This document shows, piece after piece, positions 57,201 through 63,200 of a stretch of DNA of 64,000 nt. Within the stretch, counting starts at the first letter, position 1; each line of letters opens with the position of its first letter. This DNA comes from Escherichia phage GER2. The position numbers are program-made. The stretch lies in the sequence record MG710528.1; one strand, written 5' to 3'.

Positions 57201-60200
57201 ACTGAAAGAGCTGGATAACTTATCCGCGCTGGCTGTGGTGAAAGACAGCCGTTCCGCCATGTCAGCCGTATACGCCAGTCTGCGGGGTAAAACCCTCACG
57301 GGCAAAGGCGCACAGTGGCAGAAAGTGTGGAAAGAGTTTGTTGAGGACGGAGGTAAAACCGGCTGGTTTAACATGGGTGACCTTGAGGGCCAGCAGAAGG
57401 AAATGGATCGCCTTGTGTCGCTGGCGAAGGGCGGATGGAAAGGCCAGAGTATCGGTGCATGGCATTCGTTCCTGAACCTGGTCGAGGATGCCAACGGCGC
57501 GGTTGAAAACGCTCTGCGTCTTTCTGCCTATAAACACGCCCGTGATGCCGGTTTGTCACGCCAGCAGGCGGCGTCTCTTGCCAAAAACATGACGGTGAAC
57601 TTTAACCGTCGTGGTGAGCAGGGGATGCTGATGAACTCGCTGTACATGTTTGCCAACGCCAGCATTCAGGGGACCGCAAACCTGGTGAGAACGCTCGGAC
57701 ATCTTAATGGCGACGGGCCGTTACCGGAGCGCCTTCGCTGGAAGAATCTCAATGTACCGCAGAAAATCGTGCTTGCAGCTGTGGGAGCGGGTTATCTGCT
57801 TGGCTCGCTTAACCGCAGTGTGGCGGGTGAGGATGATGACGGGGTTAACTGGTACGACAAAGTACCGTCTCATGTGAAAGAGCGTAACCTCGTCATCATG
57901 AAATCGATGTTCGGGGGCAAGGCCGGTGAGTACTGGAGTATTCCTCTGCCTTACGGGTACAACGTGTTCTTCCTGCTTGGTCATACAGCTGAAGGTGTGG
58001 CAGCGGGCGACCTGACTGCTTCACGTGCTGCCGGTAATGTTGTCGGCGGTATCCTGGGGGCATTCAGCCCGATCGGCAGCGAGACGTCGGAAACGTTGTC
58101 GGGGGCATTGCTGAAAAACGCAGCACCGACCATTCTGCGTCCGTTTGCGAACCTTGCCATGAATGAAAACTTCATGGGGGCGCAGATTTACCAGGAGAAC
58201 ATGCCGTTTGGTACACCAAAACCTGACAGCCAGCTGGGAAGACGTTCAACGCCAGAAGCGTACAAGGCGTTTGCATCCTGGCTGAATGCGTTCTCAGGTG
58301 GCAGCCAGTACCGTCCCGGCGCGGTGGATATCACACCGGAATCGCTGAAATACTGGGTGGACTATATCTCCGGAGGGACAGGGCGCTTCATTTCCAAAAC
58401 CACGGATGCGGCGGTGAAATCGCTGAATGGTATTGATATACCGGAGCAGCAGGTGCCCTTCCTGGGGAAAATTTCAGGTGAGGTGATGCCGTATGCTGAC
58501 CAGCAGAAGATGTACGACCGGATGACAGAGGTTGCGCAGTATCACGCAGAGCTGAAGAGTCTGACCGGTGCAGAAAGAACGGCGTTCATTGACGAGAACA
58601 ACGGAAAATTGTCGATGAACGGGCTTATGCAGGATACCCGGAAGAGACTGAAGGATTTGCGTAAACAGCGTGATGCCATTTACGCCGACAGTACTCTCAG
58701 TCTGGCGCAACAGTCGGCGATGGTGAAATCGGTTGAGCGGGATATGAAAATTGCCGTGGATCGGTTTAACCGCGAGTACAACAAAAAAGTGGGAGTGGAG
58801 TAAAGAACATGCCCCGTACGGAAGTGCGGGGCATGCTTAACGGGATGTGTACATAAATGGGTACGGATATGACGATTATTTTGGTGCTTTCTGTATTTAA
58901 ATCAATTAGTTAATACTTGTATTCATTATATCCATTTAACTAAGAGGACAATGCGGCACGAGTATACCCGCTAATGGACTACGGAGTAAGTACACAGCCG
59001 CTCGATTGCTTAAACCCTCGCCATTTATGCCGGGTTTTTATCATTTTTCTTAATGTTTTCCGCACGTTCTGCTTTTTGACGTGCTTCTGCTTTGCGCTTG
59101 TTGCTCATGTCGTTACGAATCTGTGCATGACTCATTAACGCAAAGATAAAGGTGCCGCCGCAGATGTTCCCCGCTAAAGTAGGTAGTGCAAAGGGCCAGA
59201 TGAAATCGCTCCAGTGCAGCGTGCCGTTAAACACCAGATAGAGGATTTCAACAGAACCGACAACGATGTGGGTGGTGTTACCCAGGGCAGGTGATGCTGC
59301 CAACTTACTGATTTAGTGTATGATGGTGTTTTTGAGGTGCTCCAGTGGCTTCTGTTTCTATCAGCTGTCCCTCCTGTTCAGCTACTGACGGGGTGGTGCG
59401 TAACGGCAAAAGCACCGCCGGACATCAGCGCTATCTCTGCTCTCACTGCCGTAAAACATGGCAACTGCAGTTCACTTACACCGCTTCTCAACCGGGTACG
59501 CACCAGAAAATCATTGATATGGCCATGAATGGCGTTGGATGCCGGGCAACTGCCCGCATTATGGGCGTTGGCCTCAACACGATTTTACGTCACTTAAAAA
59601 ACTCAGGCCGCAGTCGGTAACCTCGCGCATACAGCCGGGCAGTGACGTCATCGTCTGCGCGGAAATGGACGAACAGTGGGGCTATGTCGGGGCTAAATCG
59701 CGCCAGCGCTGGCTGTTTTACGCGTATGACAGTCTCCGGAAGACGGTTGTTGCGCACGTATTCGGTGAACGCACTATGGCGACGCTGGGGCGTCTTATGA
59801 GCCTGCTGTCACCCTTTGACGTGGTGATATGGATGACGGATGGCTGGCCGCTGTATGAATCCCGCCTGAAGGGAAAGCTGCACGTAATCAGCAAGCGATA
59901 TACGCAGCGAATTGAGCGGCATAACCTGAATCTGAGGCAGCACCTGGCACGGCTGGGACGGAAGTCGCTGTCGTTCTCAAAATCGGTGGAGCTGCATGAC
60001 AAAGTCATCGGGCATTATCTGAACATAAAACACTATCAATAAGTTGGAGTCATTACCCCCAGGGCAATAAGCTAGGTCATCAATATAATCACCACAATCT
60101 TTGCCGCACCCGCTGCAGGAAACATCCATACCATAGTGGCGATCAGCCAGCCGGAAATGATCGCGTTGGCAAACATCTCGCTGGGGGTGTTCTTCATCAC

Positions 60201-63200
60201 ATCCATGCCGATTTTGGCAAATGCATCGCGAGTTTCTTCATTGAAGATAGGCATATATTCAAATGCCCACGCAGCAATACCTGTCCCGATAATATTACCC
60301 AGCAGCACGATGCCCCATAACCGCATAAGTAAGCCGACGTTGCTCATTGTCGGTTTTTGCATGACGGGTAGTACCGCAGTTACGGTGTTTTCGGTAAATA
60401 ATTGCTGGCGGGCCATTATGACGATAATAAAACCAAAGGTATAACCGAGATTCTCCAGCAAGAAGCTGCCCGGCACGCCTTCCAGTTCGACATGAAATAT
60501 CCCTTTTGCCAGTAGCGAAGCGCCCATCGACAGGCCCGCCGCAATGGCTGACCACAGTAGCGCCATTGCGTCGCGTTCCAGCTCTTTTTCACCATCCTGG
60601 CGGATATGCTCATGAATTGCCATCGCCCGGGAGGGGAGTCGGTCTTCATCTATTTCTATTTTTTTACCGCGCTCTTTTTCTTCGCTCTCAACTTCAATTT
60701 CGTCGCTGTGTTGATCAATTTTGTCGTTGTCCATGGTCTCTTCTCTTGAATTAGCACGTATAGCTAAAGCGTAGCGGCTTTTTTGCTCGCAACTGGCGGG
60801 AGTTACTCTGAAAATGTAGAAAAGGCCGCGTTTGCCTTTTTCTGTTTCTATTGAATCAAGTAGCCTACAGGGCGGCGATTACCAGGCTATGATCAAATCA
60901 GCAAATCAGGGCGTCTGGACATCAGTTGACGTGCTGTTACAATCGCCCACACCTAAACAGGCGGATACGGTATCGTTCCGTCATGGATGGCAAACTGCAT
61001 AAGCCATAAAAAAACAGGGAGACATTTATGAAGCTTCGCCTGTCGGCGCTTGCTCTGGGAACTACGCTTCTGGTGGGGTGTGCGAGTTCCGGTACAGATC
61101 AGCAAGGGCGTTCTGACCCGTTAGAAGGGTTTAACCGCACTATGTACAACTTCAACTTCAATGTATTAGACCCGTATATTGTTCGACCGGTCGCTGTCGC
61201 CTGGCGTGATTATGTTCCGCAACCTGCGCGTAACGGTTTGAGCAACTTTACCGGCAACCTTGAAGAACCTGCGGTGATGGTTAACTACTTCTTGCAGGGC
61301 GACCCTTATCAGGGGATGGTTCACTTTACCCGCTTTTTCCTGAATACCATTTTGGGAATGGGCGGCTTTATTGATGTTGCAGGGATGGCGAACCCGAAAC
61401 TGCAACGGACTGAACCTCACCGCTTCGGTAGTACGCTTGGTCATTATGGTGTGGGTTATGGGCCGTACGTTCAGTTACCGTTCTACGGTAGCTTCACGCT
61501 GCGTGATGACGGTGGTGATATGGCGGATAGTCTTTACCCGGTTCTTTCCTGGCTGACCTGGCCGATGTCTGTGGGTAAATGGACGCTTGAAGGGATAGAA
61601 ACTCGTGCGCAGTTGTTGGATTCCGACGGTCTGCTGCGTCAGTCCTCCGATCCTTATATTATGGTGCGTGAAGCGTACTTCCAGCGTCATGATTTCATCG
61701 CTAATGGCGGTGAACTCAAACCGCAGGAAAATCCGAACGCGCAAGCGATTCAGGATGATTTAAAAGATATCGATTCTGAATAAGAAACAAACAAAAAAGG
61801 TGAGTCGCAAAACTCACCTTTTTTCTTATTAAGCTAACGCGTTGTCAGAACGCGTAGTTAAAGTTAGTACCGAACAGCCAGGCTTTACCTTCAGACTCGA
61901 AGGAATAAGCTGCCGCTCCTTCACCTTCGGTGAATTTCACTTTCTGACCATGCATATAAGATGCGCCAACATCAATGGATGCATCTTCATTAAATGCGTA
62001 GGTTAACCCAGCACTTAACCACAAACGATCCTGGTCAGGAATGGAAATAGAACGTTTATCTGCCGGAACCGGGCTGTCGTCATAAGCGATACCGGTACGG
62101 AAGGTCCAGTTTTTATCATAATAGTAGGTTGTACCCAACGCGATACGATACGCGTCCCGGAATCCTTCATCTTTATAGAACAGAGTCTGACCACTATCGC
62201 CTTTCGCTTTCAATTCCTGGAACTGGCTCCAACTGGTATAGGCCATGCTGTAGTGAATTGCCCACTGCGGCGCAACACGGTTATAACCAGAAATCTCCCA
62301 CATCTCAGGCAGGTTCAGCGTTAAGGATCCATTTTGGGTTGCCCCCATCGTGCCATACGGTAAGCCCATGTTACCCAAAATATTGTTCAGATTTGGGTTA
62401 ATGGAGCTTTTGTAATCCCCATCGAAGTCGATTTTAACTTCTGAACGATATGTCAGCCCCCAACGGTTATCTTTATCCAGTTCATAAAGAATACCCGCGT
62501 TCCAGCCAAAGCCCCATTCGTCACCTTTCAAATGAGCAATTTGAGAGTCCGGAGTATTAATACCATTGGTTAATGAAGCGGGTACACCCTGGGCAATCAA
62601 CTGTTGAGACAACAATGGCCCCAGCGAACCGGCGTAACGCTCAATTTTTGCCTTGGCATAAACTGCATCAAAACCAAGACCAAAACTCCAGCTATTGTTA
62701 AGGCGATAAGCCCCGCTAAGGTTAAGGTTGATTGTTTGCAGATCGGTTTTACCGCCATAGATACCAGCAGCGTAGTTGTCGGTAAATTCCGTAGCCAGGC
62801 CATAGTTGGAAGTTATTGACGCTCCCCAACCAAACTGATCGTTAATAGGCGCAACAAAGTGCAGGTTAGGTACCCATGCTGTCGGTGCGATATTTTTAGC
62901 ATTTGCACTCTGACCGGTTAAATCAGAATGTCCGGTAATATTTACATCCGGATCAATATAAACCGCACCTGCAGAAAATGTCGGGCGGTCAAACATGGTA
63001 ATCAATGCGGGGTTACGGCTAACGTTACCTGCATCATCGGCAATTGCACCTTCCCCTGAATAAGCCCGGCCCAGGCCAGAGGAAGAAAATTCGTTTAACT
63101 GAAAGCCTGCCGACCAGGCCTGGGTGGAGATAAGTGCCACTGCGACTGCGAGAGCAGACTTTGTAAACAGGGTTTTCTGGCTCATGACCATAACCTCAAT

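Follow-up and report, generated by a model that had tools for sequence, protein, structure and literature searches.

The yfdC gene, which lies beside a Stx1 prophage in the 64,000-nt stretch of DNA analysed here (Escherichia phage GER2, sequence record MG710528.1; hereafter the window), is a pseudogene with two lesions: an in-frame amber codon and an insertion of IS1 close to it. Both lesions are real and are restricted to a lineage of STEC (Shiga toxin-producing Escherichia coli), O117:H7. We consider it probable that they record a two-step decay of the gene in this lineage of the sequence type 504 (ST504) complex (phylogroup B2), in which IS1 was inserted first and a neutral amber mutation followed at a Dcm methylation hotspot. 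The original prediction, made from the sequence of the window, had described two inactivating events in unusual proximity. Two separate events 14 nt apart are indeed present, but they are not two inactivating hits, as a sister strain with IS1 and an intact TGG codon indicates that the amber codon came later.

Structure of the yfdC locus

The yfdC gene occupies 60734-59025 on the minus strand, and its frame starts at 60734. Read on this strand, the frame runs through ...KIVVIILMT to the amber codon and then into the right inverted repeat (IRR) of IS1, GGTAATGACTCC, in the order ATT ATA TTG ATG ACC TAG CTT ATT GCC CTG GG|GGTAATGACTCC. The amber TAG at 60074-60072 is codon 221, and this codon is TGG (Trp) in the intact alleles of REL606, 95-3322, A3 and ten contigs. 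The spacing between TAG and IS1, which lies downstream of the stop, is exactly 14 nt (60058-60071). The positions originally given for TAG and IS1, together with the 9-bp duplication and the 14-nt gap, were all correct on re-reading of the sequence. It had also been stated that TAG is one transition away from TGG or TAT/TAC; this holds for TGG (and also for CAG), whereas the changes to TAT and TAC are transversions.

In silico removal of IS1 and one copy of the duplicated target gave a yfdC of 933 nt (310 codons and a stop), which is the length of yfdC in REL606. Within the restored gene, the only internal stop is codon 221, which encodes W in REL606. In the window, the gene is present as a 5' fragment of codons 1-220 (60075-60734, minus strand) and a 3' fragment that begins with the last base of codon 226 and extends through codon 310 and the stop (59025-59280, minus strand). 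The list of open reading frames (ORFs) of the window accordingly contains a 220-aa ORF (60072-60734) and a 92-aa ORF (59025-59303) with the C-terminal part of yfdC.

The inserted element (59290-60057, plus strand) is a complete IS1 of 768 bp. Its left inverted repeat (IRL, 59290-59312) and IRR (60035-60057), which read GGTGATGCTGCC... and GGTAATGACTCC..., were detected by a repeat finder as imperfect 23-nt arms with 78% complementarity. Between them are insA (59345-59620) and the insB' frame (59539-60042), with the A6C -1 frameshift motif at 59596-59602. Pfam assigned PF03811 and PF12759 to InsA and PF03400 to the InsB' frame, and these transposase genes are antisense to yfdC. The target is codons 224-226 of yfdC, and the repeat finder also returned the perfect 9-bp direct repeat CCCAGGGCA at both ends of the element, the IRR-side copy at 60058-60066 and the IRL-side copy at 59281-59289. 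The IRR-side copy includes a second CCAGG Dcm site (60059-60063). The length of ~768 bp, the repeats of ~23 bp, insA/insB' with A6C and the 9-bp target duplication are all those of IS1.

The restored YfdC protein has the FNT (formate/nitrite transporter) family domain from end to end (PF01226, Pfam) at residues 40-277, and alignment to the solved PfFNT structure (6vqq) placed H230 on the conserved histidine of the pore and S-loop (H209 in FocA). The FNT pore depends on the conserved S-loop histidine, on transmembrane segment 5b (TM5b) and on TM6, in which an Asn is fully conserved (PMC5525234). Both lesions are located just upstream of H230, at the end of TM5a and in the S-loop. No single open frame holds the full-length PF01226 domain, since codon 221 is a stop and a second interruption follows codon 226, and H230, TM5b and TM6 are encoded beyond IS1, in the 3' fragment, instead of being joined to TM1-TM5a. 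Because codons 1-226 are split from the S-loop histidine, TM5b and TM6, IS1 alone is predicted to abolish the function of YfdC. The amber codon makes the predicted remnant only 12 residues shorter (232 to 220 aa). In its restored form, the protein resembles the YfdC-alpha subfamily of FNTs in its conserved S-loop histidine and YfdC-type I/V constriction residues (PMC5525234), but the gene in the window is split before the histidine, so that no functional channel would be possible.

Distribution of the lesions and order of events

The 220-aa product of the truncated yfdC was found on 284 contigs from NCBI, ENA and Logan. Three independent NCBI assemblies (L002-L004) have 0-1 mismatch to the window over 3.9-6.7 kb, including TAG and IS1, and one of the three also covers the prophage junction. 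The source of L002, GCA_000939255.1, is STEC O117:H7 strain FHI72 (PMC6455142). O117:H7, a member of the ST504 complex of phylogroup B2, is positive for stx1a and has neither lysine decarboxylase nor beta-galactosidase activity (PMC10370830). The fadL-mlaA flank in the window is of B2 type and the Stx1 prophage adjoins, which is consistent with the assignment to the O117:H7 ST504 complex. Since the same lesions occur in independent assemblies, they are genuine features of a sampled clone and not sequencing errors.

Among the complete RefSeq E. coli genomes, neither a 55-mer nor a 39-mer of the restored sequence centred on TAG had an exact match, while 5,426 genomes were matched with mismatches by the 55-mer and 5,388 by the 39-mer. 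The IS1 target in yfdC is uninterrupted in all 5,426 of these genomes, and at least 80% of yfdC is present in one place in 5,423 of the 5,426. Thus, no reference allele among them ends at codon 221, a possibility raised with the original prediction, nor is the insertion widespread as a polymorphism. B strains gave matches that looked full-length but consist of joined pieces; IS1 is located in yfdF in those strains and yfdC is intact. A publication that names yfdC, IS1 and argW together (PMC3630932) has no relation to the present insertion.

The probable ancestral allele is well represented in the collection. An intact protein that differs only by W221 (P0002) is encoded on 83 contigs. In six of the eight intact-allele contigs compared (L022, L023, L026-L029), the sole difference from the restored yfdC is G instead of A at nt 662. 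Over the restored region of 4,298 nt, the same six contigs differ at only three positions (62970, 61321 and 60073). The single nucleotide polymorphisms (SNPs) of the clone at 62970 and 61321 are synonymous third-position changes in fadL and mlaA. The site in mlaA was at first taken for a three-state site, and this impression was dropped; it is one derived synonymous change on a common B2 haplotype.

Insertion of IS1 into the TGG allele would give a product of 232 aa, and exactly this sequence is present in the collection (P0016). It is located on a single Logan contig, L005, from run SRR11567258. The junction in L005 (...GCCCTGGG|GGTAATGACTCC...) is identical to that in the window, but its codon 221 is TGG, and the contig ends 27 nt inside IS1. 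A mixture of strains would not be expected to yield such a contig, because the k=31 unitig k-mers that span both the G and the end of IS1 need single molecules. L005 represents a strain of its own, marked by two private SNPs and an indel of 6 bp, and none of the three SNPs private to the O117:H7 clone, TAG included, is found in it. A derived C at position 822 of L005, in the sixA-fadJ spacer, is common to L005 and the clone; the base is T in three complete B2 genomes and in ten contigs with an intact allele. TAG without IS1 was not found among the 24 longest contigs carrying the 220-aa product. The presence of the IS1 junction, TGG and a derived SNP shared with the clone in L005 points to IS1 first and the amber codon later. 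In the most parsimonious and most likely history, IS1 was inserted in an ancestor shared by L005 and the clone, and G then changed to A at codon 221 in the clone. We infer that the IS1 copy in the L005 strain is the same by descent.

As a separate feature, the yfdC-mlaA spacer (at ~60852 of the window) is longer by one AATAGA unit in L005 than in the window and in every other genome compared, a minor change in the length of a tandem repeat.

Origin of the amber codon and alternative explanations

The ancestral codons ACC TGG CTT hold a CCTGG Dcm site, and the amber mutation is the change of CCTGG to CCTAG, G to A at position 4. Viewed on the plus strand, CCAGG at 60072-60076 has become CTAGG, with T at 60073 in place of the inner, Dcm-methylated cytosine; the ancestor is thus a CCWGG motif and the change is C to T at its inner position. 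The yfdC gene has three Dcm sites (gene nt 135, 659 and 672), corresponding to 6 hot positions in 930 (0.65%). Deamination at two of the six would create a stop (Q46* and W221*), compared with 2.6% of random transitions in yfdC. The CTAG generated by the mutation is the only one in 4.2 kb of chromosomal DNA (the chromosomal part of the window is 59025-64000). When 5-methylcytosine in C(5me)CWGG is deaminated, T:G mismatches arise in CTWGG. These are substrates of very-short-patch repair by Vsr, which normally removes them, and unrepaired sites are a known mutation hotspot (PMC2715241). The CTAGG product in yfdC has this Vsr substrate context. Judging from the motif, the amber codon most likely arose by deamination of 5-methylcytosine that escaped very-short-patch repair, and Dcm would then have been active in the strain.

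Coulondre, Miller, Farabaugh and Gilbert (1978) reportedly found amber hotspots of lacI at Dcm sites of the sequence CCAGG. As in yfdC, the change of the inner methylated C of CCWGG to T makes TAG there. The lacI hotspots, however, convert CAG to TAG and come from a measured mutation spectrum, while yfdC shows TGG to TAG via the complementary strand, fixed once in nature in a gene that had been inactivated before, and with Dcm methylation assumed.

The 14-nt spacing looks like a coincidence, with neither a function nor a mechanistic link behind it, because two of the three Dcm sites of yfdC are 13 nt apart and IS1 was inserted in one of them. These are the second and third sites, the third being inside the 9 bp duplicated by IS1. 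Given a Dcm event that creates a stop, there is an even chance that it is located beside IS1. Under a uniform model, the probability of a second lesion at this distance or less is roughly 3-4%. The proximity is also subject to a bias of notice, as a reader picks up only those substitutions that create stops. A point mutation during transposition is argued against by the existence of a strain with IS1 and TGG.

In the two-step decay that we favour, an intact IS1 would have transposed into codons 224-226, duplicating 9 bp and inactivating the channel. Later, the inner C of CCAGG at 60073 (plus strand) would have changed to T on the branch that led to the O117:H7 clone sampled, converting TGG (Trp221) to TAG. 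As yfdC was already dead, the amber codon would have been neutral and could have been fixed by drift or hitch-hiking. The finding of a single secondary lesion suggests that the inactivation is evolutionarily recent. This history is standard IS1 inactivation followed by neutral decay, in a pathovar known for a Shigella-like loss of genes, and does not depart from known biology. The decay of pseudogenes by IS1 in Shigella and Shigella-like E. coli is similar in its 768-bp IS1, 9-bp duplication, dispensable gene, host-restricted pathovar rich in insertion sequences (ISs) and later point mutation; the present host differs in being STEC O117:H7 of phylogroup B2 and not Shigella, and in having one secondary lesion only.

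Several points weigh against the two-step decay. The intermediate with IS1 and TGG is one Logan contig in which only the IRR end is visible, and the sister strain is tied to the clone by one local SNP and the insertion itself. Very-short-patch repair can push CTAGG to CCAGG, so that reversion in the sister strain is mechanistically possible. As to the chemistry, Dcm methylation in the strain is assumed, the dcm gene being outside the window, and a lone mutation is no proof of its chemical origin, since an error of ordinary replication at the G:C pair would leave the same change. The points on the sister strain would also fit an amber codon that arose first, or both lesions in a common ancestor, with the strain carrying TGG and IS1 being either a revertant (CTAGG to CCAGG by mis-directed very-short-patch repair, which favours T-to-C in CTWGG contexts; PMC2715241) or the result of an independent IS1 insertion at the same nucleotide. 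Such a history needs three events, or an exact repeat of site, orientation and duplication, instead of two events. Moreover, no IS1 hotspot is visible (zero IS1 at the site in the 5,426 complete genomes), IS1 is downstream in all 24 of the longest contigs with the 220-aa product, and L005 lacks the two other private SNPs of the clone, as expected for a strain that branched off earlier. We therefore regard this reversed or simultaneous order as unlikely.

The loss of yfdC may instead have been adaptive in a Shigella-like pathovar, in which case selection would have acted repeatedly against either yfdC itself or a truncated, toxic fusion product. Like Shigella, O117:H7 no longer has lysine decarboxylase or beta-galactosidase activity (PMC10370830); this codon of yfdC is also where contigs from Shigella samples break, and the window is rich in ISs. 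We nevertheless consider selection very improbable, as the two lesions are in cis on one haplotype and the second adds no loss of function, shortening the product by just 12 residues; the two other private SNPs of the clone are synonymous, which is consistent with drift, and yfdC is intact in nearly all of the 5,426 complete genomes. A related idea, to which we give a small chance, is that codons 221-227, with their two Dcm sites 13 nt apart, are a recurrent breakpoint and Dcm sites perhaps a preferred IS target. If the IS1 insertion, the contig starts at codon 227 and the frameshift variants at this motif, both described below, are genuine and independent lesions, loss of yfdC would be convergent and possibly pathoadaptive in Shigella-like lineages, O117:H7 among them. 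The TAG could also have arisen in sequencing or assembly, for instance through a base-calling error linked to methylation, given that the site is a Dcm motif, that the neighbouring Dcm site has odd variants (GCCACTGGG) in some Logan contigs, and that stx1A of the window has a homopolymer frameshift. This explanation is effectively refuted, because the same TAG occurs, with 0-1 mismatch, in the 2015 draft of FHI72 and in independent NCBI assemblies that show the contig breaks inside IS1 expected of short reads, and because 284 contigs encode the product. Finally, read-through of the amber codon by a suppressor tRNA or by recoding, leaving the gene partly functional, has a negligible probability. 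IS1 cuts the frame 5 codons past TAG, read-through would stop at a TGA inside IS1, and the resulting product would still be without the S-loop histidine, TM5b and TM6. An amber suppressor in the strain, which had been proposed for checking, is thus irrelevant; in addition, no tRNA gene was found in the 64-kb window, to which this search with ARAGORN applied.

The yfdC gene should be annotated as a two-lesion pseudogene in O117:H7 genomes, and the IS1 junction and the W221 amber codon are two nested markers that could be of help in subdividing the ST504 complex. The locus is a natural example of a textbook process in which an IS kills a gene and a methylcytosine hotspot then adds a stop, and it illustrates that two neighbouring lesions need not imply two rounds of selection.

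The adjoining prophage and other observations

In several samples of Shigella and E. coli, contigs that represent three different alleles of yfdC begin exactly at (T)GACACC (codon 227), the base after the 9-bp IS1 target. The region concerned in L008-L012 (position 1) and L013-L015 corresponds to ~59280 and 59281-59289 of the window. Some Logan contigs have GCCACTGGG instead of GCCCTGGG at the Dcm motif beside the target, with an extra A. The pattern could reflect a methylation-linked artefact, a nearby independent IS insertion, a duplicated segment at the prophage end, or recurrent breakage.

Next to yfdC, a comparison with the intact argW in L022 and L028 shows that just the first 24 nt of argW are left (58926-58949, minus strand). 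They form the attachment core of the prophage and are directly followed by the right end of the Stx1 prophage. The intact argW of the present strain is presumably located at the far end of the prophage, beyond the window. Among the matches listed from a search of phages with the window, those of useful coverage were partial relatives, the best covering 81% at about 92% identity; one record outside the list had 99% identity or above.

The prophage contains several IS insertions, and it may therefore be defective. An IS66-family element on the minus strand (transposase 51747-53318, accessory ORF 53685-54335) appears to split a giant phage polyvalent-protein gene (47722-58803) into pieces of 1332 aa (LPD5) and 1450 aa (LPD1, MuF_C, LPD38). 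Most of the related prophages matched ~85% of the wider query 40000-58925, in several pieces. IS21-family istA/istB genes are present on the minus strand at 30805-32606, within the morphogenesis region, and another istB 3' end is located at 1-326.

In stx1A (16037-16985), seven consecutive T (16365-16371), one more than the six of the wild type, split the gene into two ORFs that overlap (16028-16384 and 16344-16985), while stx1B (16995-17264) is intact. The seven-T run is also present in the independent assembly GCA_000752415.1 (100% identity over 4,348 nt) and in other phage backgrounds; its origin would be either true slippage or a homopolymer error that recurs between assemblies. In the early region of the prophage, a 489-aa ORF on the minus strand (7932-9401) has an Eco57I-type restriction-modification methylase domain (PF07669) and is a candidate phage-borne DNA methyltransferase.

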